From: Dictyostelium discoideum
Taxonomy: Eukaryota
Length of the DNA stretch: 64,000 nucleotides
Assembly (NCBI GenBank): GCA_000004695.1
Contig: CM000153.2
Location: 448,001 to 512,000, forward strand
Direction: 5' to 3'
Position 1 is the stretch's first letter, and the number at the start of each line of letters is the position of its first letter. The notes below the pieces were generated by a model. It worked only from the letters and a program-made list of their open reading frames with translations. It made no database searches and was not told where the DNA came from. Shown here piece after piece: positions 19,526-64,000 of this stretch. The translations under genes were made by a program, and so were the position numbers.

Positions 19526-20617
19526 TTATAATACATTATTTTTTAAATCTGGAAAAACTTTACCAATTTTATTTAATAAATATTGACCATAAGAACCTTT
19601 AAAACTATGAATATTAAAATGATCCCATCTACTTGAAGAGTCATCTTTATTTTCAATTTGTTCAATTCCTTCAATTTCAGTTGGATAAGAATTAAAATTT
19701 GGATCGAAAAATAATGGAAAAGAGATTCTATCTCTACCTGAACGATTTAATTCTACTCTATGAGGAGTTGATCTATATAATCCACCAGTCATACGATCTA
19801 ACATATCACCAATATTACAAACAAATGTACCTTTAATTGGTGGTGCTGATATCCAACCATTTTTACTATGAACTTGTAATCCACCAACATCATCTTGATA
19901 TAAAATTGTTAAAACACCATAATCTGTATGTTCACCAACACCCCATTCAACTTTATCATTGTCATCACTACTTTCACCAGTGGTTTTATTATCATCACCA
20001 CTTGATATTATTGATGGATAATTAAAAATACGATATAAAATCAATGGATCCTTGGTATATCTTGATGAAAAGTAATCTGCTGATAAATTTAAACTAATTG
20101 CAATTAATTCCATTAAAGAATGACCCAATTTTGTAACTTTATCAATATAGGTGAGGATAGTATCTTTGAAACCAACGATATCATATTCAATCTCTTCTTC
20201 TAATGTTGGAAACAAATTTAAACCATGTAATGGAGTTTGTGCAATAACCAATGGATGATCATCATTCAATTCAGTTCCCAAGTATAATCCCTCTTTCCAA
20301 TCTTTTAAACCTGATGTTAACTCACCACCAACTACAAAATAACCTCTCCATGCTTTTTGTGCTAATTCCATACGATATTTCATTTTTATTGATTGATCTA
20401 AAGAGAAAAACTTTTTTGATAATCTTTCTAATCTATCAATTAATTCTTGATCAATACCATGTCCTTTAATATAAAAAAATCCAAAATTTTTACATGCATT
20501 TTCAATCTCTTTTGATATTAATTTCTTTTTTAATTCTTCTTCTTTATCATTTCCATATGATTCAATATCAATTATTGGTAATTGTTCAATTGTTATATTT
20601 TCAATTTTACTTGTCAT
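19526..20617 (-). CDS. 2-oxoglutarate/Fe(II)-dependent oxygenase (isopenicillin-N-synthase-like)
   Basis: ATG at 20615-20617 (minus); HTDYGVLTILYQDDVGGLQV (HxD...), STPHRV (distal His), RISFPLFF (RxS). Confidence 0.85.
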   Translation of the reverse strand: MTSKIENITIEQLPIIDIESYGNDKEEELKKKLISKEIENACKNFGFFYIKGHGIDQELIDRLERLSKKFFSLDQSIKMKYRMELAQKAWRGYFVVGGELTSGLKDWKEGLYLGTELNDDHPLVIAQTPLHGLNLFPTLEEEIEYDIVGFKDTILTYIDKVTKLGHSLMELIAISLNLSADYFSSRYTKDPLILYRIFNYPSIISSGDDNKTTGESSDDNDKVEWGVGEHTDYGVLTILYQDDVGGLQVHSKNGWISAPPIKGTFVCNIGDMLDRMTGGLYRSTPHRVELNRSGRDRISFPLFFDPNFNSYPTEIEGIEQIENKDDSSSRWDHFNIHSFKGSYGQYLLNKIGKVFPDLKNNVL

Positions 20618-27139: not shown

Positions 27140-27656
27140 ACAGATATTAATGTGTAATTTTATATTTTTTTTTTTTTTTTTTTATAATTAAATAAAAATA
27201 ATAAAAAGGGATTTTTTTTTTAACAGAATTCATAAAGTCCCTCAAATAAATTAATTTCTAAAATGTTATTCAGTATGTATTATTTAAATAAATAATAATA
27301 AATGAAATAAATAAAGAGAATTAAAAAAAAAATTTAAAAAAAAAAAAAAAAAAAATTATTTAGAATCATTAAAATCAATCAAGTATTAGCTCAGTCCAAA
27401 AGAATCAAATTTCTTCAATTTCAGTAGGAACCACCCAATATTTACAATAGAGATAGGAATTCAAGTTCCAAAATCAGTTGATGTGACTTATGGAATTCAA
27501 CCTGTAAAAAATATTGAATTGTCAGGTCTATAAATCTTCAAAAATTTATGATTTCACCAATAATTCATATTAATACTCAGGGAATATATACAAACATTTA
27601 ATATATATTAAATAAATATTTAATAAAATTCATTTTGAAATTTTAAAAAAATTAAA
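27140..27656 (+). repeat. dispersed repeat family R, copy A (long form without the upstream arm); unclassified
   Basis: Shares the conserved core AAAAAGGGATTTTTTTTTT(A)ACAGAATTCATAAAGTCCCTCAAATAAATTAATTTCTAAAATGTTATTCAGTATGTATTA and the downstream TTATTTAGAATCATTA(A/C)AATCAAT...GCTCAGTCCAAAAGAATCA...TTCTTCAATTTCAGTAGGAAC block with 28620-29345 and 42583-43160. Confidence 0.75.
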
Positions 27657-27829
27657 TGTTATTGATTGATTTGAAGTAACATGTCAATCATCATTTTCAA
27701 ATGAATTACCATATGAATTACCATATCGATCAAAAAATATAATTTAAATTCAAATGACATTGTTAGTTGTATTGGTGAGGGTTTTAGAAATAGTAATGAA
27801 ATAAGTATGATCATTTGAAATCAGTCAAT

Positions 27830-28090
27830 AACATTTGGTGATGAAGTTAATATATAACCATTAGTTTTTAATAAACCACCTTTTAATTTTGGAATACTAT
27901 TTACACTTGATGGAATTGGTGGATATGTAATTTGAAAATTTATTTGACCAATAATCACAACAACCTATTTGAGCATTTAATTTTCATGAGAGTTGATCTG
28001 AATAATTTGAAAATCTACAGAAATAATATCATTTGGATCAATAAAATTATTATCAATTTTAACAGAAACAAAAATCGGTCACCATTCAAA
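27830..28090 (-). pseudogene. tgr-like receptor gene fragment (matches 39895-40160 of the intact + gene, about 85% identity); pseudogene remnant
   Basis: Reverse complement reads ...GTTTCTGTTAAAATTGATAATAATTTTATTGATCCAAATGATATTATTTC...GGTTGTTGTGATTATTGGTCAAAT...ACATATCCACCAATTCCA...CCAAAATTAAAAGGTGGTTTATTAA..., with indels and in-frame stops relative to the 39311-41776 gene. Confidence 0.7.
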
Positions 28091-28288
28091 ATAAAAATAA
28101 TAAATTATGATTATAAAAAAAAATATATAGCAGATACAAAATTTTAATTTTTTTATTAATAATGACCTAGGGTTTCACCAAAGAACATCGACTTCTCTTA
28201 TCTCCATAATGGAAAAAAGTTTTATCAGATGATCGATATTCTTTGAATAAAAATAATTATTATAAAAGTAGTAATTATTTAAATAGTA

Positions 28289-28384
<96 letters not shown>

Positions 28385-28619
28385 TAATAATAAATAATTA
28401 TTTTAATAATGATAATAATATTTTAAACAATTGAAATATATGCATTACCTTTTTTTTTTTTAATTTTTTTGAAATTTCATAGGATTTTATTCAAATAAAA
28501 GTAAATAACAAAAACGAATAAAAAAAAAAAATTTAATTCAAAAATATTCAGGGGATAGAAAATAAATAAAAGTAAAAAAAAAAAGATTCGATAAACCCAC
28601 CATCGCCGCATAAAATTAC

Positions 28620-28831
28620 TTTTCACCACCCTTAAAAAATATTGTGCAATTTTTTAAATACATAAATTACCCGTTCATTTTATTATATGAAAAAAAAGGG
28701 GTTTTATATATTTTTTATTTAAAAGATTTAAATATATGATATATACACAACCAACAATAAACAACCAACATACGGCCGATATTATTGTGCCATTTTAAAT
28801 TTTGTTTTTATTTTATTTTCATAATTAAATC

Positions 28832-28874
<43 letters not shown>

Positions 28875-29345
28875 ATATAAAAAGGATTTTTTTTTTTACA
28901 GAATTCAACAAGTTCCTCAATAAATTAAATTCTAAAATGTTATTCAGTATGTATTTTTAATTGAATAAATTAATAAAGAGAACTAACAATTTAAAAAAAA
29001 ATTATTTAGAATCATTACAATCAATCTCAAGGGTCAGCTCAGCCCAAAAGAATCAGATTTCTTCAATTTCAGTAGGAACTAATCAATCAAATAATAATGC
29101 AGCACTTGATGTTAATATTGGAATTCCAGGTTTATTAAATATTGAAATTTCAACCACTCAATAAATTTTCAAAGATTTATGATTTCACTAATAATTCATT
29201 AAAATCCTCATGGAATATATGAAAATTAAATATATATTAAATAAATATTTAATTATATTCATTTTGAATTTTAAAAAAAAAAATTAAAGGTTCAAAATAA
29301 GTTTATTTTGAGAAAAATATGGTGTTTTTTTTTTTAAAAAAATAA
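28620..29345 (+). repeat. dispersed repeat family R, copy B (full-length form of about 0.7 kb)
   Basis: Collinear with 42583-43160 apart from a block of about 250 bp absent from that copy, and with the core of 27140-27656. The ORF at 28961-29164 is not conserved between copies. Confidence 0.8.
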
Positions 29346-29585
29346 TATATTTTAAATTTTAAAGTAATTCGACTTAATTCTAGTTTTAATTATTCATTAT
29401 TATTTTAAATTTTTTTTTTTTTTTTATTATTAAATCACTTTGTTTTTGTTCATTTTTTTATTTTTAAGTATAAATTTTTTTTTTTTTTTTTTTTTAAGGT
29501 TAGGATTAGAAATTAATTTGGGAAAAGGAATTTAAAGAGAATTCTGTTAAATTTAATGAATTGTACTTTTTGTGCTATTCGAGTA

Positions 29586-29631
<46 letters not shown>
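29586..29631. repeat. (TAC)n microsatellite, about 15 copies, non-coding
   Basis: tactactac... run. Confidence 0.9.
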
Positions 29632-29632
<1 letters not shown>

Positions 29633-29761
29633 ATTTGCATGTTTGGTTATTAAATTCAATGTTTCAATAACCAATAGCAACACCAACAACAATAAATAAA
29701 AAAATTATTAAATTATATTTATTTGTTAATTTATTTATTTATTTATTTATTTGAAATGAAT

Positions 29762-30106
29762 AATGTGAATTGTTGAAATTGATAATAATAGATTTTGAAA
29801 TATATTTCTCGTGTCAGAGTATTGATGAGAATCATCAGATTGAGTTAAATATTGGAATACTTTTGATACCACTTTTACCATTGGTTGTAACATTGATAAA
29901 TATCATTTCACCATTTTTAATATTATTAAATGTATTAATCATTGTATCATTAATATACTTTAAATATCACTACTATAATTATTACCACTACCACTACCAA
30001 TACTACCAAGTATTATAACTTTATCAATTAGATAATAGAAATCATTACCAATATTGGTTAAAATACCTCCTTGTTTTAAATAAATTATACTAGTTTGATT
30101 AATTGG
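29762..30106 (-). pseudogene. tgr-like receptor gene 3'-end fragment (matches 41383-41776 of the intact + gene, about 90% identity, including the C-terminal hydrophobic tail codons); pseudogene remnant
   Basis: Reverse complement reads ...CAATTAATCAAACTAGTATAATT...AAAACAAGGAGGTATTTTAACCAATATTGGTAATGATTTCTATTATC...GGTGAAATGATATTTATCAATGTTACAACCAATGGTAAAAGTGGTAT...CAAAATCTATTATTATCAATTT.... Its order and orientation relative to the 27830-28090 fragment are scrambled. Confidence 0.75.
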
Positions 30107-31362
30107 CAGTGATTTATAGATTATACAGAATGTTCAATGGAAAAAAAACATATGTTCTTTACTACAAAATTGATGGTTTTTTGTAACATCTGCTGGTCTG
30201 TTACAGAGTGATTCAATGATTTCTTTATACCATGTTGTTATTGAGGTTGAGTTAATTGGTAGAGATAGAGTGGTGAGGAAGGTGGTGTCATATTATCTAA
30301 TTTGTGGTGTAGTTGTTGCAGTTGTTGTCGTTGTTATTGTTTATTGATTAATAGTTGCTATTGTTCATTATTATCGATATTATTATTATTGTTATTATTA
30401 TTATCTTCTGACATTTTATAAACTGAATTATTTAATCTTATTGAATAAAATTTGTTATTGATTTTAAATTTTGTTTTATTACTGAGATTATTTACTATTA
30501 CTATTTAAATTTTTATTATTATTGACTTTATTATTAATTATTGTTAGTATAATAAATGTTTTGAATATTGTAGATGATGTGAATTCCCCCTTTATTAATA
30601 TTTTACAAAAAATAATAATGGTTATAATTAATAAAATTTATAATAGTATTATTTTTTATTATATTTTTTAAGATTTCTTTTATTTTAATAAAATAATAAA
30701 ATATTTAAATTTTTTAATATATTTTATAATTTTTTTTTTTTTCTATTTTTTTAAAGATAATTAAAGTTACATTTTTATAATAAATCTTTTAAAAATTTAA
30801 ACCAGATTAATGCAATTTATAACATTCTTATGTATTATCTTATTATAATAATTAAAAACGTATTTGGTTTTAAAAATTTCATCATTAAAGTGGCCAAAAA
30901 CTTAATAAAATATTAAAATATAATAATTTATCTTTAATTTTAATAAAAGTTGTAAGAGTTTTTTTTTAAATTAACAAATATTATTTAAAAATAAGATAAT
31001 AATTAAAAAAAAAATCTTTAAAAAATATAAAAAAAAAATAGTGTGCTTCTTCATTTATTCATTTTTTTATTTTTTTTATTTATTTTCACACGAAACCCCA
31101 TTAGTATAAATTTTAAATTAAACAGTTTGGATGTTATTGATTAGCAATCATTAGGTTGGATTTTAGACAACAAATCCAAATGCCTTGAAATTGCGATATC
31201 ATCTTGAAAGCCACCATAAAATTATTATTTTAATTAGAATGTGAAACACGGTTAATATTTTTTTTTTTTTTTTTTTATTTTTAAATTTAAAAAAAGAAAT
31301 CCATATTTTTAATTTTTGAATAATTTATAATTTATTTTTATAATTTTTATTCATATTTTATT

Positions 31363-31623
31363 TTTTACATACTTTTTAACACAACCAATAATATATCCTT
31401 TTTAATGATGGTGGTGAAAATCACTATACCATACAAATATATAAAATTCTTTTGAATATAAAAGGGGTCTTTTTTTTTTTTATAATTTTTTAAATTATTT
31501 TTTTTAATTTTTATTTAAATAAATTATGTATTTTTTAACACAACCACTAATATATCCTTTTTAATTGATGGTGGTGAAAATCACTATATAAATTTATATA
31601 TTTTTTTTTTTTGAATATAAAAG

Positions 31624-31640
<17 letters not shown>
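31363..31640 (+). repeat. direct repeat of a roughly 110-bp unit (31363-31480 and 31530-31640): TTTTTAACACAACCA(A/C)TAATATATCCTTTTTAAT(T)GATGGTGGTGAAAATCACTATA...TTTTGAATATAAAAGGG
   Basis: Two near-identical copies about 170 bp apart in non-coding DNA upstream of the kinase gene. Confidence 0.7.
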
Positions 31641-31658
<18 letters not shown>

Positions 31659-32041
31659 TGGTGTTTGCATAGAGGAGATCTAAGATAGTAGGGGTAATTT
31701 TCAATAGTAATTGATAGTGCGCTCAAAATAATAATGACCTGTTTTCTCTTCTCCCTTTTTTTTTTTACTTGTACATTTTTTTTTTTTTATTTGTTTTTTT
31801 TTTAAATTTATTTTTAAATATATTTAATATTAATTTTCTTTTTTTAATTATAATTTTTTAATTATTTTTTTTTTTTAATTATATTTTTTAACTATTATTA
31901 TTTTAATTATTTTTTTTTTTACATTTAATTTTTCTATTTTTAATTATATTTGTAATTATTATTTTTATTATTTTTCTTTTTTTCTATAAATAAAATATTA
32001 AAATTATTAAAATTTTTAAAACCTTTTTTTAAAACAAAGCC

Positions 32042-32244
32042 ATGACATCTCAAAATTGGAAAAATTGTTTTAATAAAAAAGCAATTGAGGTTATTGAAAT
32101 TCATAGATCTCAGGAAACAATCACTGTTGAAACAGTAAATAATGAAGATAAAATCAAGAATAATATTTCAAAACCCAAAATTAAAGTACATAAAAAACCA
32201 ATAATTAAATCAATTTCAAAGTTAAAATTACAACCAAAATTTTC
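32042..32244 (+). CDS. ankyrin-repeat protein kinase (+ paralog), exon 1
   Basis: ATG at 32042; GTAAGT donor at 32245 (phase 2). A 302-nt AT-rich intron containing an (ATT)n run; TATAAAAG acceptor at 32539-32546. Confidence 0.6.
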
Positions 32245-32364
32245 GTAAGTAAAAACATTTTAAATTCTTTTTTTTTTTTTTTTTTTTTCATGAAAAAAAA
32301 CATTTTAAATTCTTTTTTTTTTTAATTTTTTTTTATTTATTTTTTTTTTATTATTATTACTATA

Positions 32365-32397
<33 letters not shown>

Positions 32398-32401
32398 TTT
32401 A

Positions 32402-32439
<38 letters not shown>

Positions 32440-32496
32440 TTATTATTATTTGTATTATTTTTTAATAAAAAAATAATTTAAAAAATTCTAATATTT

Positions 32497-32543
<47 letters not shown>

Positions 32544-32546
32544 AAG

Positions 32547-33684
32547 GAGATACAATGATATTATTGATTATTCAATTGATTTCAATTGTAATAAAAATTA
32601 TTTCTTAAAACAAGATAAAGTTAGTGGTAATACTTTTATTCATGTTTTTTGTGAAAAAAGAGAATCAAAAATAAATTTAGAATCTGATATTGAAAATTTA
32701 AAATGTTTGGGAAAGGAAACGATTGAAGCAAGGAATAATAATAAGGAAATTGCACTATTTTCAACTTTAAAAAACCAATGCCTTGGTTTAAAAATAATGC
32801 ATGAATTAATTTCAAGAAATGTTATGTTCATTGATGATAATGGTAAAGATGAGTTACTAGTAAAATGTTTAGAAGAGGGTAGAGTTGATATGGTGAAATA
32901 TTTAATTACCGTTGATATTAATTTGATCTCAAAATTAAAGAGAATATGCCAAATTACCCAATTAAGCCTAGAAACACTTCAATTTGTCGAATTAATTAAT
33001 TCAGAATATGAAAAAATCGTAGAAATTGGTTTAAAATCTGCAGGTAGAGAATACATTAAATTGTTTTTCATTCAATTTATTTTGGGTAATTTTTCAAAAG
33101 AATCAATCATCCAAACAATTGATGAATATAAATTACCACCAATTCCAAAAGAAATTGAAGATTTTTTCTTTGTTTATAATTATCAAATGTGTGACTTTGT
33201 TAAATTAACTGAAATCAAACCACGTTACCTCAATGAAATTTCTAAAATAAATATCTATCCAATTGGTCAAGTCTCCATTGAAAGAAGAAATGAACTCGGT
33301 CGTGGTGGTAATGGTACCGTTTATTCAGGTGTATTAAAAGAGATTGATAGTCAAGGTAATGAAATTTCAATACCAGTTGCAATCAAAATACCAACTCAAT
33401 TCTATAAATCAAAATTGGTTGAAGTATATAAAGAGTTGGCTATTCATCAAAAGATTAATGGTATTTGTGGTCCAAAGTTATTTGGATGCGTAAAGTTAAA
33501 TGTTGGATTTGGTATTATAATTGAAAGATTTGATTGTAGTTTACATGACTATATTCAAAATAATAATATCGATTTCGATTTATTTTTTGAATTGGCTCTT
33601 AAAATGGTTATAACAATTAGAAATCTACACAAATGTCATTTAAATGAAATATTCCATCGTGATATTAAACCACACAACTGGTTA
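32547..33684 (+). CDS. ankyrin-repeat protein kinase (+ paralog), exon 2: ankyrin-like repeats plus kinase subdomains I-VIb
   Basis: Ankyrin-like DDNGKDELLVKCLEEGRVDMVKYLI; glycine loop GRGGNGTVYSG; VAIK; HRDIKPHNWL; GTATGT donor at 33685. The ORF-track M at 32707 is a TTG codon, not a real start. Confidence 0.8.
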
Positions 33685-33772
33685 GTATGTATATTATTTT
33701 AATACTTTTTCATTTTTCATTTTAATATTATAATTTAATTTAACTCTTTGTATTTTTATTTATTTATTTTAG

Positions 33773-34423
33773 GTTAAAAAAACTAAAGATGAATTGGTGG
33801 TCGTTTTATCTGATTTTGGTTTATCAAGAGAGAATAGTGAAACAAATGAAAATACTCTTCAGAAATATAGAGGAACATCAGTATTTATTCCACCAGAATT
33901 AAATGATAATATCTTATATAATGAAAAATCAGATATATACTCTTTGGGTGTATCATTTATGATGTTGCTTTATAAAGTTGTTTATGGCAAAATGGAAAAC
34001 CCATTTTATGAATTCAAAATTTCAAAAATGGAATACTTCAAAACAGTTGTTGCTTTAGAGAACTTTTTAGTACCAATTGTACCAACATTTTTACCTGATT
34101 CTTTTAAAGAGTTCTTGTTCTCAACAATGAATAGAATCTATACATGTCGTCCAAATTCTGAAGAATGTGTAGAAAGACTCATAACACTAAAGACTGAATA
34201 TGAAAATGATAAAACCAAATGGCAAGTAAATAGTGCTATTATACAAAAAGAAAAATCATTACTCACTGATTCAATAATTTCACAACAATTGAAATTAATG
34301 AACCAAGTTAAAAAATTTGTTCAAGAAAATGATAAATTCGTTTTTTTGAAGAAAACAAAATTATTTTTTTCAGAATCTGAAATTAAACAATATCTTTTGT
34401 CAATAATAAAATGTCAAGAATGA
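33773..34423 (+). CDS. ankyrin-repeat protein kinase (+ paralog), exon 3: kinase subdomains VII-XI
   Basis: TTTTAG acceptor at 33767-33772. VVVLSDFGLSRE (DFG), GTSVFIPPE (APE-like). Stop at 34421-34423. Confidence 0.8.
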   Translation, partial: VKKTKDELVVVLSDFGLSRENSETNENTLQKYRGTSVFIPPELNDNILYNEKSDIYSLGVSFMMLLYKVVYGKMENPFYEFKISKMEYFKTVVALENFLVPIVPTFLPDSFKEFLFSTMNRIYTCRPNSEECVERLITLKTEYENDKTKWQVNSAIIQKEKSLLTDSIISQQLKLMNQVKKFVQENDKFVFLKKTKLFFSESEIKQYLLSIIKCQE

Positions 34424-34864
34424 AAACTTTAAATAAAATTTTTTAAAAAATAAAGAAAAGAATTAATAATTAGATTATTATTGTTTTAATTTTTTTATTT
34501 TTTTTTTTTTTTTTATAATTAACTGTTATCAAATTCTGGTTTTTCAAAATAAAATAATTCTTTCTTTTTATACAATTGCTTTTAATTCATCTATAAATCT
34601 AATTTGTGATCTAGTTGATTCTAGTTTTAAATAGCTAAATTGGTAATCTAAGAAAGTTGATTCTTTATTTTTTTTTATTTTTTTATTGAACACCAAAGTT
34701 ATATCTTTTTTTTATTTTTTGAGTTTTATCTTTTAACTTTTTTTATTTTTTGAATTTCTTTTTTTTGTAATATTTTATATTGGAATGCTAATAATTATGA
34801 ATTACTTCTTTAAAATATTTTAAAGAAGAGCAATATTTTATTTTATTATTATTATTATATTAAT

Positions 34865-35650
34865 TATTTTTTTTATTATTTGATGAGCAAGCCACATCAT
34901 TGTTATTATTATTACTAATATTATTATTATTGGTTTTATTATTATTTGATGAGCAAGCTACATCATTGTTTTTATTATTACTAATTATTATTATTGATTT
35001 TATTATTATTATTTGATGAGCAAGCAACATCACCGATAGTATTATTGTTGTTATTATTACTACTATTAATATTATTGGTTTTATTATTATTAATTGATGA
35101 ACGAGCTAAATCATTATTGGTTTTATTATTATTTGATGAGCAAGCTACATCATTTTTATTATTATTACTAATATTATTATTATTATTGATTTTATTATTA
35201 TTTGATGAGCAAGCTACATCTTTGTTATTATTATTACTAATATTATTATTATTGATTTTATTATTATTTGACGAGCAAGCTACATCATTGTTTTTATTAT
35301 TACTAATATTATTATTATTGATTTTATTATTATTTGATGAGCAAGCAACATCATTGTTATTATTATTACTAATATTATTATTATTGGTTTTATTATTAAT
35401 TGATGAGCAAGCTACATTATTGTTATTATTATTACTAATATTATTATTATTATAATTGGTTTTATTATTATTTGATGAGCAAGCTACATCATTGTTATTA
35501 TTATTACTAATATTATTATTATTGATTTTATTATTTGATGAAAAAGCAACATCGCCGATAGTATTATTGTTGTTATTATTACTATTAATGATAGTGTTAC
35601 TGTTACTATCACTACTATTATTAATTGATGAACAAGCTAAATCATTGTTG
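34865..35650. repeat. tandem array of about 12 copies of a 66-72-bp unit (TTATTATT...TGATGAGCAAGCTACATCATTGTTATTATTATTACTAATATTATTATTATTGATT); 34984-35650 encodes the cytoplasmic tail repeats, 34865-34980 lies 3' of the stop codon
   Basis: The motif TGATGAGCAAGC (or 1-2-nt variants) recurs at 34881, 34947, 35017, 35097, 35133, 35199, 35269, 35337, 35401, 35473, 35537 and 35627. On the minus strand it encodes (DVACSSNNNK.NNNNISNNNNN)n. Confidence 0.85.
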
Positions 35651-38291
35651 TTATTATTTTTATTTTTGGAATTTCTATTTCTAAGGTTATTATTTTTTGG
35701 AATTCTTAATGGATCTTCAGCCATTATAATATTGTCATACATATCCAAAAAAATCATTCTTTGATTATTATAAACTTCCCTCGTTTGTAAATATTCATCT
35801 CCTTTTGTAGAATGATTGTTTTCTACATTTTCAATTATTCTTTCCCTTTTAATTGACATAAAGAAACGTTCTGGTATTTTAAAGAAAATAATTAAAAAAA
35901 TAAATAATAGTGGTGCAAAAATTATTGTAACTAATGATATTACAATTTTTTTCCAATCTACTCGAGAACTTTCTTCTTGAGATTTGGTGTTATTGTTGAT
36001 ATATATATATTCTTTTTCTGAAATATTTTGGAATATTAAATTATACCTAGAGATATGAACTATTTGATTTGAAGTGACATTAATTTCAAATGTTGAGTTT
36101 ATTCTAGGTAAAAAGAAATTTAGCAATATATCATTTGCAATTGCACAACCTATTTCTGTTGAAAAACTATATGATATTGTGCATCTTTTCTGGCCATCAA
36201 TTATGAGACTTGTTTTTAGTGGATAAAAATTGAAACCGGATAGAGCTAATACCCAATGGTCCTTTTGATAATTGCTTATTGTGCCAACTTTATTTATTGT
36301 TGGTCCATTAAATGTTATATTAAAACTAATTGATTGATCCATTGAATTAATAATGCATTGTTCAACATGAGGACAAAAGTAATCTTCACTTTGACATGTG
36401 GAATCACATGAAAAAGAAGAATGATTTAAATATGTACAACCAAATTTATAATTACCACATTCAAGAGAAACATTTTGTTTTGAATGAAAATTTTCTCCAT
36501 CTATAAACACTATACTACCATTATTATCAAATGGTTTTGAAATTGCACCCTTAATGGTAGGTTTAATGGTTAATTCATATGGATCAGAAATAATACCACA
36601 ACAACAGATTGTAATTAGGTCACTTGTAAAATATGGTTCCTTTTTGGTTGTAATTTCATTGGAACTTATTTTTATTGGAGAAAGTGATTGGTTCGAGAAT
36701 GTAATAAATGTATTATTATAAAAGCCATAATTGTTAAATTCACCAGTACAGATTATGAATTCATCCTTTGTGTAACATGATTCTATAATTGGTTTTTTAT
36801 AATTAAATGTTGATTGGTATGATTTATTTTCAAAATTTATATTGTAACCTTTTTTACCACAACCTGGCACAATGAAAAACGAATAATCTAAATCATTTGA
36901 ATTTTTACCAATGAGTGTTCCCGTTGATTTAAATTCATCACCAAAATCTGAATAGATTGATAGTATCGGATTTTCTTTATTTTCATCATAACTTGAATTA
37001 AAAAATTTAACAATGCAATTTGATCCATTTACCATTGGTTGAGTAACAAACTTAGTTATGAATGATAAGCCAATAAAATAACTGTTTGATTGTTTTTCAT
37101 AAGATTTCACCGATATATTAATATAGGACATTGCTTCTGGAATGGTGAATGACATAACAGTCTCATTATCATTAATTTGAAGGTTTTGTAAACTAATTGG
37201 GATTTTATCATTAAATATAGTTACTGATCCTACTTCACCAAGACATTGGCCATATATTGTCAAGACACCATTGGAAATACTATAAGATGAAATAAGCGTT
37301 GAGTCATAGTTGAAATATATTTTGTTTTGGTTGGTAATACCATCTATGTTTACGGTAACTGGTAAGTTGTTATCTAAAATTCTATGAGCCATATAACAAG
37401 TAATATTATTTGGTGAAAGTGTAATAATTGAACATGGGTAATCTCCTATTTTAACCTCTGCTATAATAATTGAAGAATTCGATGTTAATCTTTCTCCATT
37501 GATATTAATTGTAGCATTTTTGTTTCTTGGAATACTATTAATTGAATTTAATACTGGAGGATATACTAAATCCATTTTATTTGAAGGTACTTTACTTGCA
37601 ATTAATTGAATTGTAAATGAAGTACAAAAGAATTCTGAATATTCAAAAATAAATTCAATATATTCATGATCATTTTTAATAATTTGTTCATTTTTAATTT
37701 TTTGATTGTTGATTAAAATTTCTTTTGGATACATTTCAGTACAGAAATTAGAGCCAATTAGTGTCACAGTTTTTTTATTTATTTCTACTTTTTCTATATA
37801 TGGATTTTGGTATGATGAATTATAAACAAACGAAAGACCAAAAATTTTAAAAAATCCACAACCACTTGGAAAAATCATTAAATATTCAGAACCGTTTTTT
37901 CCATTTGGAGATATCAAAAAATCGATTTTTTCATAATCATTTTGGAAAAGAGCGTTCTGATTTGTTGTTAATAAAAAATATGTAATATTGGATTGAAAAC
38001 TACCTCCTTTAGTTTCTGGTTTTAATTCTGGTTCAAAAATTGGTAAGATATTTGAAAAAATCCCTGGAAACTGTATACCATCTGCTGTTTTTTTTTCAGT
38101 TTGTTCACTTCCGAAAGCATGAAATTTAAAATTGTTATCAGTAGTTAAATTACACATCCTTAAATCACCATCAATATTACAATTGTAGTTGTATTCAAAA
38201 ATATCTACATTTTTTTCTTTGAATATATATTTGGAAATGTAAGATTCATTTACTTGATAAAAAAGTGTAATATATTCTTTATCTATTATAT
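34981..38291 (-). CDS. tgr-like IPT/TIG-repeat transmembrane receptor (- paralog), exon 2: ectodomain, TM and repeat-rich cytoplasmic tail
   Basis: Paralogous to the 39136-41776 gene (ELKPETKGGSFQSNITYFLL versus EFKPKTRGGNTTLSGYYLEL; NPYIEKVEINKKTVTLIGSNF versus EPNIEKIDINQSFLDITGTNF). TM segment IVISLVTIIFAPLLFIFLIIFF, then a tail of about 330 aa built of roughly 24-aa repeats. TTTTTTTTACAG acceptor at 38292-38293 (minus). Confidence 0.85.
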
Positions 38292-38355
38292 CTGTAAAAA
38301 AAATTTAAAATTAATATTTTACTTTTAATATTGATTAATCTAATTAATTACATAC

Positions 38356-38413
38356 TCTCAAGAATTGAATATACTATTGTTATTAATAAAATTATTAACA
38401 AATAATATTTCAT
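38356..38413 (-). CDS. tgr-like receptor (- paralog), exon 1: signal peptide MKYYLLIILLITIVYSILE
   Basis: ATG at 38411-38413 (minus), GTATGT donor at 38350-38355 (minus), phase 1. Same intron phase and position as exon 1 of the + paralog. Confidence 0.65.
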
Positions 38414-38765
38414 TCTTGAATGTTTATCAAATTGTTTAATTAAGTATTGGGTTAATTATTTGCTACTTTTTTATTATTTTTTTGATTTTATTTTATTATT
38501 ATTTTTTTTTGTTTTTTAAAAATTAATACTTTTTTTATTTTATTTAATTTTTTTTTTTTTGTAAATTTAAAAATTAATGGTTTTATGATAATTTTAGATT
38601 AAAAAAATAATAATTATTATAATTTAATTCTTTTTCTTTGTGATTTAACCACAATTTTTTTTTAAAATCATCATTGGGTTGTTATTTTTTTTAATAATAA
38701 TAATTATTTTTATTTTCAAACCCATTTTTATATTTCACTTTTTTTGAATTTTTTTATTTTTAGAA

Positions 38766-38830
38766 AGGGGTACCTATATTTGGACTCATTGAGGGGTTTG
38801 AAATTGATTTACCCCATCCCACACACACTT
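38766..38830. promoter_or_regulatory. G-box / CA-element-like palindromic element in the shared divergent promoter: GGGGTACC...GAGGGGTTTGAAATTGATTTACCCCATCCCACACACAC
   Basis: GGGGT/ACCCC inverted arms followed by CCCACACACAC, the best non-AT motif in the 722-bp region between the two receptor ATGs (38413 and 39136). It resembles GBF-binding G-box/CAE sites of post-aggregative Dictyostelium promoters. Confidence 0.35.
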
Positions 38831-38961
38831 TTCTTTTTTTAATTTTGATTAAAAAAAATATAACTTTTTTAATTTTTAAAAAAAATTATATTATTATTAT
38901 TTTTTTTTTTTTTTATTTTTTTTATTTTTTTTTTTTTTTATATTTATTCTTATAATTATTA

Positions 38962-39075
<114 letters not shown>

Positions 39076-39135
39076 ATTACTATTATTTTTCTCAACAATT
39101 TTATAATTCTTTAAATTAGAAATCAATTATTTTAA

Positions 39136-39211
39136 ATGAAAATAATTTTAATTTCTTTACTTTTTTATTTATTTTCATTTGCTATTTCTTATGATGATGT
39201 CATTCCTTTGG
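39136..39211 (+). CDS. tgr-like IPT/TIG-repeat receptor (+ paralog), exon 1: signal peptide MKIILISLLFYLFSFAISYDDVIPLG
   Basis: ATG at 39136; GTAAAT donor at 39212 (phase 1); 73-nt intron; TTTTTTTAG acceptor at 39276-39284. Confidence 0.7.
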
Positions 39212-39284
39212 GTAAATTGTTTTTATCATTTTTTTCATATCTCTTTTTTTTAATTTATTAATTATTTATTAATTATTTTTTTAG

Positions 39285-41776
39285 GTTATGAAAGTCACAA
39301 TGATTCTCTTGTGATTAGATATCGTGAAAGAGAAAATTATTATACAAATATTTCATTTTTATGGAATGGTAAAAGTCGTTATGATATGAGTTTTAATTGT
39401 GTTTTAAATAATACAATTAGAACTTGTACTTTACCAGTGAAAGAATCTGATCATGCCCAAATGTATTCAGAGAAAATATCTGCATGTACAGAAAATAATG
39501 GTACTTTTAAAAGGTGTGGTTATGATGTTGAGTTATTTTATTTTCCAAGTCCATTTTTAATTTCAGAGTTTAAACCAAAAACACGAGGTGGAAATACAAC
39601 ATTAAGTGGTTATTATTTAGAGTTAAAAGAAAGAATTTATGTTCCATTTGAAAGTCACTATAAAGATGATCAGTTTTATTATGCTGTAGAAGTATATACA
39701 ATTCCAGGTAAGTTTCAATCAAAAACACCAGATAGAATAAATTTAGTTTTAAAAGTTTTTCCAGGTTGTGGATACAGAACAATTATTTGGGAGAATCGTG
39801 AAAGATTAAATTTTACATATCAAGAGCCAAACATTGAAAAAATTGATATTAATCAATCATTTCTTGATATAACTGGTACAAATTTCTACAATCAATCAAT
39901 TTTGGTTTCTGTTAAAATTGATAATAATATTATTGATCCAAATGATATTATTTCAGTTGATTTTGAAATTATTAAATTAAAATTTAATTATTCAGATCCA
40001 TTCTCATCAAAATTGAATGTTCAAGTCGGTTGTTGTGATTATTGGTCAAATCAATTTCAAATTACATATCCACCAATTCCAATAAGTTCAAATAGTATTC
40101 CAAAATTAAAAGGTGGTTTATTAATAATCAATGGTAATAGATTAACTTCATCACCATCATTATCTAATAATATTAATATTTCAGTAACAGTTGGTGATTC
40201 AATTTGTTCAATTGTTTCGTCATCTTCAAATGAAATTAAATGTAATTTACAACCAATATCAAATTCAACATTTAATAATTCATCACCAATTGCTGTATCA
40301 ATAAATGGGGTTGTAAATACAAATACATTATTATTAAATTATGATATTCCATATATTACAACATTCTCTCAAGTAAATGATGAAATTCATATAATTGGTG
40401 GTTGTTTTGGTAATATTAATTCAACTCAAATTCATATCAATGATAAACAAGTTTCTGGCCAAATTAAATCAATTAATAATGATGAAACAATTTTAATATT
40501 AAAAATACAAAATCAAATTTATAATTTCAATCTTTCAATCGAATCAAATTCAATCAAATCAAATGGAATCAATGTAGATGTAAAATTGTATGCAAGTATA
40601 AATGAAATTCCATTGGTTGCTAATAAATTAATTAATTTTACATTATTTTATGTAAATTCAAGTAATATTAATTTAATACCAACAATTAAAATAATTAATG
40701 AAAAATCAAATCAAACAAGTAAATCAATTTCAACCAATGTAAATGAAAGTGTTGTATCATGTTCATTTTTAATTGAAAATAATTGTGGTATTATTAATTA
40801 TGAAATTGAAATTGGTAATCAAATATATCAATCATCATTTTCATATGAATCACCATTGATTAATAAATGTAATTTAAATTCAAATGAAATTGTTACTTGT
40901 ATTTGTAAAGGTTTTGTAAATAAATATAATGAAACAAGTATTTTTATTTCAAATCAATCAATAGCCCTTAGTAAAGAAATTAATAATAGTAGTTATGAAT
41001 CAATATCATTTCAAATGAAAGATGAGTATAATATTCTTGGTGAATTGTATTTAAATGTATGTGGTTTATTATCAAATAAAGTAATTATTAATACATTTCC
41101 AATTTTTAAAAATGTATCGATTCCTAACTTGTTTGGTACAAATGGTGGTAATATCATTATTATTGGTAAATATTTAAATAATAATACAAATATTACAATT
41201 GAATGTAATGGTGAACAAATTATTATAGAAAAAGAATGTAAATTAAAAAATAGTAGTACATCATTAGAATGCAACATTAATTTAAATGGTCCAAATGATA
41301 AAACTTGTAAATTATTATTTAATAATGATAATAGTATAGTATCAACATTTAATTTAATATACAAATCACCATCAATTAATCAAACCAGTATAATTAATTT
41401 AAAACAAGGAGGTATTTTAACAATTATTGGTAATGATTTCTATTATCCAATTGATAAAGTTACAATAATTGGTAATGGTAATGGTAGTGGTAATAGTAGT
41501 AGTTTAAATTGTAATGAAGCAAAGTATATTAATGATACAATTATAACATGTTTTATTCAAGCAACTAATTATACATTTAATAATATTAAAAATGGTGAAA
41601 TGATATTTATCAATGTTTCAACCAATGGTAAAAGTGGTATATCAAAAGTATTCAAATATTTAACTCAATCTGATGATATCCATCAATACTCTGATGCTAG
41701 AAATATCTTTCAAAATCTATTATTATCAATTTTAATCATATTAATCATTTCATTATTATTCATTTCAAATCTTTAA
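39285..41776 (+). CDS. tgr-like IPT/TIG-repeat receptor (+ paralog), exon 2; C-terminal hydrophobic tail (GPI-signal-like or zero-tail TM)
   Basis: 830 codons; repeated IPT-like blocks (NIEKIDINQSFLDITGTNFYNQSILVSVKID..., PKLKGGLLIINGNRLTSSPSLSNNINISV...); ends NLLLSILIILIISLLFISNL-stop. The ORF-track M at 39311 is a GTG codon. Confidence 0.85.
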
Positions 41777-41845
41777 AAAAAAACCATAAATTAATAAATA
41801 AATACATTAATAGTTTAAAAATTTTTTTTTTTTTTATTTATAATT

Positions 41846-41881
<36 letters not shown>

Positions 41882-42582: not shown

Positions 42583-42973
42583 TCCAACCACCCTCAAAAA
42601 ATATTGTATAATTATGATTTTTTTTTTTTAAATAGGAAAATTACCCATTCATTTTATTATGTGAGAAAAAGGGGTTTATTTTTTATTTTATTTAAAAGAT
42701 TTAAATATATGATATATACACATCCAACAATCAACAACCAGCAATATATATATAAATGGCAGATATTATCGTGCCAGTTTTTTAATTGTTTTTATTTTGT
42801 TTTCATAATTGAAGCATTAAAAAAAAAAAAAAAAAAAAATATATTTACAAAAAGGGATTTTTTTTTTTTTTCAGAATTCATTAGGTTCCTCAAATAAATT
42901 AATTTCTAAAATGTTATTCAGTATGTATTATTAAAATAAATAAATAATAAATGAACTATATAAACTAATAAAC

Positions 42974-43013
<40 letters not shown>

Positions 43014-43160
43014 ATTTAGAATCATTACAATCAATCTCAAGGGTTAGCTCAGTCCAAAAGAATCACATTTTGAAATTTTAAAAAAAAAAATTAAAGAGTT
43101 TGAAATAAGTTTATTTTGAGAAAAATGTGGTGTTTTTTTTTTAAAAAAAATATATTATTA
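42583..43160 (+). repeat. dispersed repeat family R, copy C (short form, lacks a block of about 250 bp), about 0.8 kb downstream of the + receptor gene
   Basis: CAACCACCCTCAAAAAATATTGT...GATTTAAATATATGATATATACACA...AAAAAGGGATTTTTTTTTTTTTCAGAATTCATTAGGTTCCTCAAATAAATTAATTTCTAAAATGTTATTCAGTATGTATTA...TTATTTAGAATCATTACAATCAATCTCAAGGGTTAGCTCAGTCCAAAAGAATCAC...AAGTTTATTTTGAGAAAAATGTGGTG. Confidence 0.8.
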
Positions 43161-43930
43161 TCTAATATTTTAAATTTTCAAGGAATTTTATTTAATTCTA
43201 TTTTTAATTATTCATTATTATTTAAAATAATTTTTAAAACAAAAACAAATAGAATTATATTTAATTCTATTTTTAATTATTATTATTATTTTTTTATTTT
43301 TATTTTTTTATTTTTATTTTTTTTATTTTTATTTTTTTATTTTTTTTTGGTTATCATATTATTCAAACCACTAAAAGTTCTTTCAATATCAATAGTTGAT
43401 TGTGACAATCAAACAGATCTTTTGAAGTTCACAATTCTTTAGGTAAAAAGCCTTTTTTTTTTTTTTTTTTTTCTTTCTTTGACCAATTCATTAATTACAA
43501 TTTTATTATTTGATTTATTTAATTTTTAATACTTATATATTTGAAATTGGATATTAAAAAAAAAAAAAAAAAAAAAAAGTAAAATTTAAACGTTTGAACA
43601 GAAAATAAATTAAGATCAAAATTAATAAATTAAAGTAAAAGTTTTTTTTTTTTTTTTATGAATAATTATTTTTAATTATTGGTATGAAATTACAATAGCA
43701 ATAATTAACTTAATTATTAATTGTTTAAAGATTTTATTTATTATTTAAAATAATTTATTAAAAGTTTTATTCTTTGTTTATCGATTAAAAGATATATTGT
43801 TGTTGCTTAATTAATTATTTGTGAAAATTTTAAGTTGATTGTGTGGTAGTATTGATAAATTGTATAATGAAATATTAATATTTTAATATTGGTGATTATT
43901 TATTGATCTGTAACAATAGGTGGAAATTCT

Positions 43931-44584
43931 TTATCTATCTTCATTAAAAGATTTGCATTTAATGAAATAACTTGAATAATCAAAACTTTCCAATTCTTGG
44001 ACATAATTATCGTGAGGATTTTGATTTAAATCAAAGTCTCGAATGTAATCCAACACATCAGATTTTATATAGTGATATTGATTTATCATTTGTTCATTGA
44101 GTAACGAGTAATCTTCATGTACTGATATTTCAGTATCCCATTTGGTTCTATCTGATTCATATTCCTCTTTACATTTTTGGATTTCTTCAATGCACTCTTT
44201 AATTGATGGTCTTCTTTCAGGCATTTTGCTCATCATTAAAAATAGCAATCTTTTTAATCGTGATGGTAAGTTGGGAGGGATAGTTGGAATTAAACCAGTA
44301 TTCTGAATAATGTTCAGGTTTTCGGGTTCATCTGCAATTTGGTATTCATGGTAAGGATGGACAAACTTGCCATATACGAGTTTGTAGGCCAATTGATACA
44401 AAGAAATACCAACAGAAAAGATATCAGATTGAGAAGAAAATAAAAATCCTTTATAGCACTCTGGTGCAATGTGTAGATTAGTTCCTCTTATTTGCTGTAA
44501 TGTACAACCGTTAGATTCAGTGTTCGATCTTGATAATCCAAAATCAGAAATAAATACTGTATGGTTTCCATCTATTGTCTTTAT
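43931..44584 (-). CDS. ankyrin-repeat protein kinase (- paralog), exon 3: kinase subdomains VII-XI
   Basis: TTTTATAG acceptor at 44585-44592 (minus). IKTIDGNHTVFISDFGLSRSN..., GTNLHIAPE. Stop at 43931-43933. Confidence 0.8.
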   Translation of the reverse strand: MKTIDGNHTVFISDFGLSRSNTESNGCTLQQIRGTNLHIAPECYKGFLFSSQSDIFSVGISLYQLAYKLVYGKFVHPYHEYQIADEPENLNIIQNTGLIPTIPPNLPSRLKRLLFLMMSKMPERRPSIKECIEEIQKCKEEYESDRTKWDTEISVHEDYSLLNEQMINQYHYIKSDVLDYIRDFDLNQNPHDNYVQELESFDYSSYFIKCKSFNEDR

Positions 44585-44698
44585 CTATAAAATCATATTT
44601 TAAAAATTAACAAACAAATAAATAAATAAAAAAAGAATTAATATCACAAATAAATAATATTGAAAAAAAAAAAAAAAAAAAAAAAATTTTTAACATAC

Positions 44699-45797
44699 CA
44701 ACCAATTTTCTAATTTAATATCTCTATGATATACATTTATTTCTGCTTCTGGATAGTGGTTATGAACCTGAGAAACAGAATTTACCATCTGTGTCGATAA
44801 AATGAAGAAAAGATCTAAATTAATTTGGTTACAGGATATGAAGTTTTTTAAATCCATATCGCATTTTTCGATGATAATAGAGAGTCCAAATTTTAATTTT
44901 GAAACACCAATTAATTTCAAAATATTTTCACCTTGCAATGATTGATGAACTGATACTTCTTTATAAATACGTTCAAAACTATCGTCATCATAATTTTTGA
45001 ATGATTTTATTGCGACTGGCGTTATAGTATTTTGAAGATTGATATATGTGGCTTTATGAACCGTACTGAAACCACCTTCACCAATAATTGAAAAATCTGA
45101 TAGTTGACTTTTATCAATTATTCCAACCTTTTCAATGGATTCTATTTCATTTTTTTTTAAATTGTATTTTGTTTTATAATCATCCATTTTGAATATGAAT
45201 TTGTTGACTGCTTTTTCAATTTCAGTAGGAACTGGTGCATTGGCAACTTTAAATAATAACTTTAATTTTTCTTGACTATAAATTAATTCTGTTAATAAAG
45301 CAATATTTGTTTTAATTAATTTACCATTAACACTATCTGGAATAGTACTAAAGTATGCCATCGAAAAATAAATATCATCAAAAATATCTTGAATATCTTG
45401 ATCAGTATTTTTACAATTTTGGCATATTTCAAAATGATCAAATCCAAAAGAAATTAATAGTTTTAATATCGGTATGTTTTTAAGATTTATGCACTTGCAT
45501 AGAATTGAGTGACCATGTTTATTTGTTTTCTTTGCCATCTCTATATTAATTAAACCATTACAAACCATTTCACACACCAACTGAAGTCCATTCACTTTAT
45601 TTTCAATGGCATAATAAAGAGAACTATTTTCATTTTCATCACTACATGATATTACTCCAATTTTAGAAAACTCACATAGGAATTGCTTAACATCTGGACC
45701 AGAATAAGTCAAGCAGAAATGGTGAAAGATTTTATAACAATCATTTATAGAATCTGTAAATAATTCTGGGAATTGGTTGTGAATTATTTGTATGTTT
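44699..45797 (-). CDS. ankyrin-repeat protein kinase (- paralog), exon 2
   Basis: Glycine loop GEGGFSTVHKATY; VAIKSF; HRDIKLENWL; GTATGT donor at 44693-44698 (minus), the same position as in the + paralog. The frame stays open upstream of the TTG the ORF track used as a start, with no in-frame ATG, so an upstream exon is required. Proposed acceptor TTACAG at 45798-45799 (minus), phase 2. Confidence 0.8.
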
Positions 45798-45893
45798 CTG
45801 TAATCTTGAAAAAGGTCTACGTGAATATTTCTTTTTTTTAAAATTTTTTTTTTTTTTGGAAAATATTTAATGAATAAATAATAAAATTAACAA

Positions 45894-45896
<3 letters not shown>

Positions 45897-45958
<62 letters not shown>
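45897..45958. repeat. 62-nt homopolymer (poly-A on +, poly-T on the gene strand) inside the proposed kinase intron 1
   Basis: A perfect run of A at 45897-45958. Confidence 0.9.
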
Positions 45959-45961
<3 letters not shown>

Positions 45962-45963
45962 AC

Positions 45964-47564
<1,601 letters not shown>

Positions 47565-63241: not shown

Positions 63242-64000
63242 TTATTCTGATAATTTATTTAAATCATTTTTAGTTAAAATACCAGTATCTAAAATGATTG
63301 AAGTTACTAAAGTCATTGGAGTAACATCGAATGCTGGATTAAAAGTTTTTGAATTTTTTGGAGCCCAACGAACTTGGCCAAAGGCACCACTTGCACCTTG
63401 AACTTCAGTTTGAGAACGTTCTTCAATTGGGATATCTTTACCAGTTAGACATTTGATATCAACAGTTGACATTGGAGCCACACAATGGAATGGGATGTTA
63501 TGGTGATTTGCCAACACTGCGACACTGTATGTACCGATTTTATTGGCAAAGTCGCCATTGGCAGCGATACGGTCGGCGCCAACCAACACCCTTTGGATTT
63601 TACCATCACGCATTAAGCATGCAGCCATGTTGTCGCAGATTAGTGTGTATGGAATGCCCTCTCTCTCCAACTCGTATGTAGTCAAACGGCCGCCTTGGAG
63701 CAATGGACGGGTTTCGTCGACATAGACATGGATGTTCTTGCCCTGCTTGTGGGCCTCCCTGATGACGCCCAATGCAGTGCCTGCGCCCACTGTGGCGACA
63801 CTGCCGGTGTTGCAGTGAGTGAGAATGGACTCGCCTGGTTGGATCAAGGATGCCCCGAATTTCGACATCTTGTCACACATGTCCACTTCGTTTCTAATGA
63901 TACGCATTGCAATCTCGCCGAATCTGGTGGCAGAGTAATCACGATTTTCAACATTACCCTCCTTCAATTGCATCATCTCATCAATTGCAAACATTAAATT
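63242..64000 (-). CDS. S-methyl-5-thioribose-1-phosphate isomerase (MtnA / eIF2B-related family); 3' two-thirds only, N-terminus beyond the window end
   Basis: ILTHCNTGSVATVGAGTALGVIREAH, VYVDETRPLLQGGRLTTYEL, VGADRIAANGDFANKIGTY, NPAFDVTP; stop at 63242-63244. The frame is open to position 64000. Confidence 0.85.
   Translation of the reverse strand, partial: NLMFAIDEMMQLKEGNVENRDYSATRFGEIAMRIIRNEVDMCDKMSKFGASLIQPGESILTHCNTGSVATVGAGTALGVIREAHKQGKNIHVYVDETRPLLQGGRLTTYELEREGIPYTLICDNMAACLMRDGKIQRVLVGADRIAANGDFANKIGTYSVAVLANHHNIPFHCVAPMSTVDIKCLTGKDIPIEERSQTEVQGASGAFGQVRWAPKNSKTFNPAFDVTPMTLVTSIILDTGILTKNDLNKLSE

Follow-up and report, generated by a model that had tools for sequence, protein, structure and literature searches.

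The question raised by this locus is what became of a set of broken gene fragments that lie between 27.1 and 30.2 kb of a 64-kb window (the whole stretch of DNA analysed) of chromosome 4 of Dictyostelium discoideum, AX4 lineage. The fragments are related to an intact Tiger (tgr) gene further along the same window, and they could be silent donors of sequence for that gene, products of recombination at a dispersed repeat, or simply the remains of a dead relative. The interval is intergenic, situated between a 1-pyrroline-5-carboxylate dehydrogenase gene and a protein-kinase gene, and is very probably a gene graveyard of the chromosome-4 tgrI cluster, in which decayed relics of an old TgrI-subfamily paralogue (F1, F2 and F3) are interleaved with two copies (R1 and R2) of a second sequence, R.

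Three decayed tgrI relics

The relics were located by a blastn comparison of 26.5-31 kb with 38.5-44 kb, in which the intact gene lies; the blastn identities given here count gaps. Tblastn with the intact protein and a self-comparison of the whole window agree with blastn in finding three relics, not the two segments described in an earlier reading made from the letters of this DNA (the sequence-only reading). F2 (27836-28075, minus strand) matches 40156-39899 of the window, corresponding to codons ~231-318, with 83.8% identity over 259 columns (E 5e-80). F3 (29688-30134, minus strand) matches 41838-41344, codons ~713-855, with 79.2% identity over 495 columns (E 1e-124), and spans the codons of the C-terminal hydrophobic tail, as had already been noticed, plus ~60 bp of the 3′ untranslated region (UTR). 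The fragment previously overlooked, F1 (27678-27852), is on the plus strand and matches 40822-40985 (codons ~555-592) with 74% identity over 178 columns (E 1e-29); by tblastn it is 58% identical to the intact protein and 70% identical to paralogues of the P0015 type. If gaps are left out of account, F2 and F3 are both ~90% identical to the intact gene in pairwise alignments, and 90.8% and 85.6% identical, respectively, in the multiple alignment; the identities of 85% and 90% originally quoted were therefore roughly right.

The intact gene is carried on the plus strand and consists of exon 1 (39136-39211, 76 bp), an intron (39212-39284, 73 bp) and exon 2 (39285-41776), together encoding 855 amino acids. 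Its translation is identical to the AX4 protein EAL65808 (XP_639151; Q54R96), which shares 92% identity with Tiger protein I3 (TgrI3; Q54RE1). Pfam matches to this protein are PF24612 Ig_TgrO1 (1.4e-26, in two stretches) and PF01833 TIG (1.2e-5), and the translation, read by eye without a predictor, has a hydrophobic N-terminus (MKIILISLLFYLFSFAIS) and a hydrophobic C-terminus (LLLSILIILIISLLFISNL). From these similarities we assign the gene, formerly described as a plus-strand receptor gene, to the TgrI subfamily of Tiger genes.

As a control for chance similarity, 200 dinucleotide-preserving shuffles of the intact gene were used. The bit scores of F1, F2 and F3 are 121, 288 and 436, against shuffle maxima of 36.5, 39 and 44, respectively, i.e., 3 to 10 times the best of the 200 shuffles. 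Since the scores are so far above those of the shuffles, the AT-rich background, named by the sequence-only reading as the explanation that might undo its proposed alignment with the intact gene, does not account for the matches.

Each of the three relics is damaged. F1 is interrupted by stop codons and includes a tandem duplication of 12 bp; in F2, 19 bp are deleted, 1 bp is inserted and a TGA occurs in frame; and F3 has several frameshifting indels (1, 2 and 10 bp), a 24-bp deletion and a stop codon, its transmembrane tail being disrupted by the 10-bp deletion. Stops and indels had been reported for both of the segments then recognized, and these are seen in F2 and F3. The relics measure 175-450 bp, so that each represents less than 20% of the gene. 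Judged by their sequence, F1 to F3 are pseudogene relics lacking coding capacity, and they most likely have no present function. Their order, F1(+), F2(-), F3(-), is collinear with the gene on neither strand, which extends the earlier observation that the fragments are out of order. F1 adjoins F2 in inverted orientation with an overlap of 17 bp or less, and the three relics share no gene coordinates.

A mosaic of this kind could also be produced by misassembly of AT-rich repetitive sequence, and the window, with ~20% G+C, long homopolymers and microsatellites, offers the material for such an error. An independent long-read assembly of the same lineage (GCA_054883475.1, sequence L001) is, however, 100% identical over 29185-30400, which comprises F3 and the 3′ part of R2; it matches the window over 29185-51806 (22.6 kb compared), and the differences are confined to homopolymer lengths. 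In addition, the relics, being 74-84% identical to the intact gene by blastn, are not collapsed identical copies. We consider an assembly artefact to be extremely improbable.

An (AAT)n microsatellite occupies 28246-28420 (Tandem Repeats Finder: period 3, 46 copies). It is 86-90% identical, in minus orientation, to an (ATT)n tract at 38935-39109, just upstream of the living tgrI gene (blastn), and its orientation fits a remnant of a minus-strand tgrI promoter. It may therefore be what is left of such an upstream tract, although the evidence is weak because simple repeats of low complexity match easily.

Relics and living paralogues

The sequence-only reading regarded the fragments as copies of internal and 3′-terminal parts of the intact gene in this window. 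The homology is borne out by the matches given above; the choice of the neighbour as source is not. The living set with which the relics were compared comprised nine tgrI paralogues from two strains: the neighbour, tgrI3 (in L002), and seven genes from ACTFIR (L004-L006; assembly GCA_054859385.1). By blastn, F3, F2 and F1 are 79, 84 and 74% identical to the neighbour and equally so to the tgrI3 locus, while the neighbour and the tgrI3 locus share 93.5% identity. Gap-free identity to every living paralogue amounts to 81-85% for F1, 90-92% for F2 and 84-87% for F3, and the living paralogues are 90-98% identical to one another.

The substitutions themselves point in the same direction. Relic-private substitutions, at sites on which all of the paralogues agree, number 20 + 13 + 29 = 62, and the relics carry just one of the neighbour's 15 rare alleles. 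At the sites fixed between the two living subgroups (A and B), F3 has four B and three A states, F1 five B and two A, and F2 two A; the relics also contain, at the protein level, several residues of the other subgroup, for example, NSNE, VTT and DDSHQ. The equidistance, the mixture of subgroup sites and the private substitutions together argue that the relics are not copies of the neighbouring gene. On these comparisons, the relic lineage is placed as having branched off close to the divergence of the living subgroups or earlier, and as having decayed on its own thereafter.

These data bear directly on the suggestion, made in the sequence-only reading, that the fragments are a reservoir of donor sequence, i.e., silent cassettes from which the living tgrI gene would receive sequence by gene conversion and so become polymorphic. 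The idea has some appeal, as the relics are within 10 kb of a living paralogue, the family is known for recombination, and the same hypothesis has been published for the tgrBC locus (PMC12745789). Moreover, the longest exact runs that the relics have in common with the intact gene measure 35 and 47 nt, which is more than column shuffles lead one to expect (P = 0.016 and 0.0005, respectively). Both runs are located in motifs conserved throughout the family, that of 47 nt encoding the family-wide motif NTFNNIKNGEMIFINV; for this reason the runs are put down to uneven conservation, and we read them as the putative trace of uneven constraint along the gene before its death rather than of conversion.

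Against a donor role stand the equal distance of the relics from the neighbour and from the eight other paralogues, and the single rare allele of the neighbour set against 62 private substitutions. No tracts specific to the living neighbour were found in the relics with nine paralogues from two strains sampled, and there is thus no gene-conversion signal in this comparison. The segments that the relics represent (codons 231-318, 555-592 and 713-855) are 90-98% identical among the sampled paralogues, so that little diversity would be gained from them. TgrI, furthermore, has no known allorecognition or receptor function (PMC12745789). A donor reservoir is accordingly very unlikely. The relics do resemble the chicken pseudo-V genes, the trypanosome variant surface glycoprotein (VSG) pseudogenes and pilS of Neisseria in being non-functional partial copies near an expressed paralogue; unlike such donor cassettes, they are three short pieces, derived from conserved parts of the gene, and share no conversion tracts with the living gene.

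R, a small gene of the prestalk family

The second component of the debris is R, of which the window contains three copies; these are the only other dispersed repeats revealed by the self-comparison. Their placement, one beside each of the two segments first described and a third ~0.8 kb past the intact gene, is as the sequence-only reading had it. R1 (~27190-27660, plus strand) is broken and is 5′-truncated relative to R2; it has a putative ATG at 27263 and an exon 2 from 27364, and its spliced translation, MLFKSLKSIKY, meets a stop after 11 codons, followed by a frame shift. R2 (28625-29417, plus strand) is the most complete copy and includes ~310 bp of upstream sequence. Its gene consists of exon 1 (28937-28946), an intron (28947-29009) and exon 2 (29010-29164, including the stop codon), forming an intact 54-codon open reading frame (ORF), and the spliced translation, MLFKSLQSISRVSSAQKNQISSISVGTNQSNNNAALDVNIGIPGLLNIEISTTQ, is uninterrupted up to the stop codon. 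R3 (42587-43235, plus strand) begins 811 bp past the stop codon of the intact tgrI gene and is a pseudogene in which ~215 bp, comprising the second half of exon 2 and the 3′ UTR, have been deleted and the translation is broken.

By blastn, R1 is 75% identical to R2 over 480 columns and 84.6% identical to R3 over 240 columns, and R3 is 75-85% identical to R2 on either side of the ~215-bp deletion. In each of the three copies, ATGTTATTCA is followed by GTATGT...TTTAG, after which comes an exon. What had been called a dispersed repeat thus turns out to have the structure of a small two-exon gene, with an ATG, a GT..AG intron and a stop codon, and this 54-codon gene is the only coherent ORF in R.

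The R2 protein is 69-81% identical to DDB_G0283465, DDB_G0283503 and DDB_G0283517 (57 amino acids, chromosome 4); its AX4 matches at 66-81% also include DDB_G0281189, DDB_G0281191 and DDB_G0281195 (59 amino acids). At the DDB_G0283465 locus (L003) the intron occupies the same position as in R2, after the 10th coding base, and DNA similarity between the two is limited to the promoter, the two exons and the 3′ UTR. Without gaps, identity among the R copies is 82-86%, as against only 61-70% with the DDB_G0283465 locus, which indicates that they form a local subfamily. In a search with Pfam family PF05710, R2 scores 19.0 bits, DDB_G0283503 17.1 and DDB_G0283465 15.5, all of these being below the gathering threshold of 21.4. 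We take PF05710 (Pfam name "Coiled") to be the Dictyostelium hssA/2C/7E small-protein family.

Table 3 of PMC3640940 lists DDB_G0283465 and DDB_G0283503 as small proteins (57-59 amino acids) that are prestalk specific, and DDB_G0281189, DDB_G0281191 and DDB_G0281195 as hssA-related prestalk genes; all five are strongly de-repressed in mef2A mutants, and the 57-59 amino acid group is without significant similarity to hssA (PMC3640940). DDB_G0283517 is a sequence homologue of R2 that is absent from this table. R2 resembles the 57-59 amino acid prestalk genes in its two exons, its intron after ATGTTATTCA, its N-terminal MLFKSLQSI...QKNQISS...QSNNNAAL, and a similar promoter and 3′ UTR. It differs from them in length (54 amino acids) and in its C-terminus, which is DVNIGIPGLLNIEISTTQ in place of their hydrophobic AAALVVIPGLLTAAAVAHI; R1 and R3 differ further in being broken. 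Homology and predicted gene structure identify R as a diverged copy of this two-exon family for prestalk-specific proteins of 57-59 amino acids, and R2 itself may be a real gene, an unannotated or mis-modelled 54-codon member of the family. An old 94-amino acid protein model in the public collection (P0037, window 27263-29164) joins the R1 exon IGIQVPKSVDVTYGIQPVKNIELS to R2, which places the tgrI relics F1 and F2 inside its "intron." This model is almost certainly an annotation artefact and should not be trusted.

The identification of R weighs on a further possibility, namely that R is a mobile or recombinogenic repeat whose copies recombine ectopically and thereby make the tgr cluster unstable. 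In its favour, all three R copies in the 64 kb are within 0.8 kb of tgrI sequence, and the flanks of this tgr unit differ between strains. But R has the structure of a small cellular gene with annotated homologues, of which DDB_G0283465 and DDB_G0283503 are reported to be expressed; the spliced ORF and these homologues led us to reject a transposon as the nature of R. The alignments show no transposon structure in R, though no dedicated search for terminal repeats or target-site duplications was made. No tgr gene is present within 10 kb of the DDB_G0283465 locus; conversely, the tgrI3 locus and three ACTFIR loci have no R beside tgrI, except for a relic orthologous to R3. Nor do the boundaries of a younger duplication unit in the window (31017 and 41866; see below) coincide with R. 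A mobile or recombinogenic R is thus most improbable.

The ACTFIR relic just mentioned is an open exon 2 of R at the position orthologous to R3 (L005 14912-15054); it is 92% identical to R2 at the nucleotide level and encodes nearly the same C-terminus. Some 200 bp upstream of it, within sequence that stands in place of the promoter and exon 1 of R, there is a near-perfect hairpin of ~105 bp (L005 14601-14705; GGGGCTATTTGGGTT...AACCCAAATAGCCCC), which might be a small foldback element or one resembling a miniature inverted-repeat transposable element (MITE).

History and setting of the debris

If the debris is a gene graveyard, it would represent the "death" side of birth-and-death evolution: tgr units would have been duplicated locally as segments, and deletions, small inversions and point decay would have followed. 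Two generations of duplication would then be represented at this locus, the debris being the older and lying just outside the unit formed by the younger. The younger unit comprises window 31017-31882 and 36472-41866 (plus strand), which are common to the window and the tgrI3 locus; the former is 91.3% identical to L002 6820-7656 and the latter 93.5% identical to L002 7661-12723. To the left of 31017 homology is absent. This left boundary is 0.9 kb to the right of F3, and the unit ends ~90 bp past the tgrI stop codon. The tgrI3 locus is situated ~114 kb from the window locus, in the opposite orientation. Relative to the window and ACTFIR it carries a deletion (of window 31882-36472) that takes out the kinase gene together with the 3′ half of the partner gene, and the partner of tgrI3 (L002 7658-9248) is cut to 449 amino acids. 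We also considered R as a part of the younger unit; this was ruled out, as the tgrI3 locus has no R.

As for the apparent scrambling of the debris, it could reflect two tandem units, each composed of R on the plus strand and tgrI on the minus strand, a detail on which we are evenly divided. R1 and R2 both lie to the left of minus-strand relics, in the same orientation, which makes two tandem units the simplest history. Unit A (R1 with F1 and F2) would have lost the 3′ and 5′ ends of its gene and kept a middle piece, whereas unit B (R2 with F3) would have kept only the 3′ end, starting 270 bp from R2. An inversion in unit A of the block corresponding to 40157-40985 of the gene would place 40985 (plus strand, the end of F1) against 40156 (minus strand, the start of F2), matching the junction observed. 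Identity is 82-86% among the R copies and 81-92% between the relics and living genes, similar levels that fit a co-duplication of R and tgrI at about the same time.

A serious alternative to the two-unit detail, which we regard as possible but adopt no more than tentatively, is that there never were two tandem units. A single tgrI pseudogene would have been split by inversions, transpositions and deletions, and R would have arrived separately. Since F1, F2 and F3 do not overlap in gene coordinates, one gene copy could have supplied all of them; the F1/F2 junction is an inversion junction inside one copy, and R1 and R2 are not each other's closest relatives. This history requires F3 to have crossed R2 and R to have been duplicated separately, however, and hence more events than a tandem duplication followed by deletions; it also has to accommodate the fact that R is on the same side of the minus-strand relics, in the same orientation, in both cases.

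Several observations do not sit easily with the graveyard as we have described it, the exact runs of 35 and 47 nt being the first of these. R and tgrI are both on the plus strand at the living locus, with R downstream, but they are convergent in the debris, where R is on the plus and the relics are mainly on the minus strand (F2 and F3); given this difference between tandem and convergent arrangements, co-duplication as a fixed unit needs an extra inversion, and none has been traced. R falls outside the younger duplication unit. The distance between R1 and R2 is no smaller than that of either copy from R3, and as they are not the closest pair, the tree lends no specific support to a tandem origin of the two. 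Finally, the debris interval has been seen in the AX4 lineage alone. The graveyard reading nevertheless remains the one we favour. Of the earlier proposal of repeat-mediated rearrangement or gene conversion around this locus, it retains the frame of local duplication and rearrangement.

Clusters of this type are familiar from other organisms. In the major histocompatibility complex (MHC) and in the clusters of KIR and olfactory receptor genes, living genes are found among pseudogene fragments of various ages, which stem from repeated segmental duplication and deletion. The tgrI debris may be likened to such birth-and-death relics; the organism and the protein fold differ.

Within the tgr family itself, head-to-head gene pairs have given rise, by duplication, to clusters in which genes and pseudogenes are separated by non-tgr genes; in the AHIO, BEJ and CDK subfamilies, partial fragments are abundant and duplication is nearly as fast as that of transposons; for tgrBC, partial duplicates have been proposed to recombine into expressed genes; and no function is known for TgrA, H, I or O (PMC12745789; bioRxiv 10.1101/2025.10.22.684067). 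The named tgr pseudogenes and fragments of D. discoideum (tgrB_ps, tgrC_ps1 and tgrC2-C5; 26 pseudogenes in AX4) belong to the same family and to the same kind of paired-unit clusters as the relics, and show the same decay by stops, frameshifts, truncations and local rearrangement (PMC12745789; bioRxiv 10.1101/2025.10.22.684067). The relics differ from them in belonging to TgrI (AHIO) on chromosome 4 and not to the tgrBC allorecognition locus, and in being much shorter and more decayed. The debris is an instance of an already published tgr pattern, as clusters, pseudogenes, partial fragments and the donor idea were all published in 2025, and its significance is correspondingly small: it adds a further example of tgr birth-and-death, in the chromosome-4 TgrI group. 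Provided that other strains can be aligned over this region, it might be used as a neutral clock to date tgrI duplications.

The comparison with ACTFIR reveals differences in the arrangement of the cluster. The orthologous ACTFIR unit of kinase, partner tgr and tgrI genes in L005 has the left flank of the AX4 tgrI3 locus (with genes of 725 and 457 amino acids) and the right flank of the window, which indicates that a large structural rearrangement, one breakpoint of which is at the edge of the tgr unit, distinguishes the strains. Although the flanks are clearly different, a simple inversion of ~100 kb between AX4 and ACTFIR does not account for all of the loci L001-L006, since L006 is not where a single inversion would put it. 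ACTFIR also has three extra tgrI copies (L004 and L005), most of them with a copy or fragment of the partner gene, and, inserted after the orthologue of the gene at window 43.9-47.6 kb, a kinase fragment that has been duplicated; the AX4 lineage does not show this copy-number variation of the cluster.

It could be imagined from such differences that the relics and R are signs of a long-lived hotspot of recombination at the border of the tgrI cluster on chromosome 4, where the R copies would act as homology anchors for repeated inversion and duplication and the relics would occasionally recombine into living tgrI genes in natural populations. The differing ACTFIR flanks and the R relic at the orthologous position are compatible with a hotspot of this kind and do not show it; we think its existence very unlikely.

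The living tgrI gene of the window is one half of a typical paired tgr unit of chromosome 4, in whose tgrI cluster every tgrI gene faces a second tgr gene head-to-head. Its partner (34981-38330, minus strand) is arranged head-to-head with it, the two starts being ~0.8 kb apart, and the cytoplasmic tail of the partner is long and repetitive; the partner shows 27% identity over 842 amino acids to the tgrI protein (tblastn, E 7e-55) and is called as 1122 amino acids in L001. The part of the window encoding the tail (34834-35714) consists of diverged tandem repeats with units of the NNNNDVACSSNNNKTNN type, the copies of which are 74-84% identical. Protein-kinase genes flank the pair on both sides, at 32040-34423 (plus strand) and 43931-47550 (minus strand), and are distant paralogues of each other, with 27% identity over 330 amino acids. 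No relics of the partner gene or of the flanking kinases were detected in the debris, the sole match being a cross-match to F2.

No tRNA genes were found in the window, and there is thus no sign of retroelements that target them; an Rfam scan of 26-44 kb yielded nothing at the gathering thresholds. A single-exon 2-oxoglutarate (2OG)-oxygenase gene is located at 19526-20617. At the other end, window 63443-64000 is syntenic with L006, a locus of ACTFIR that goes on to a further cluster, made up of three tgrI-type genes (the P0009 group), and P0015 of AX4 is probably situated a short way past the right end of the window.

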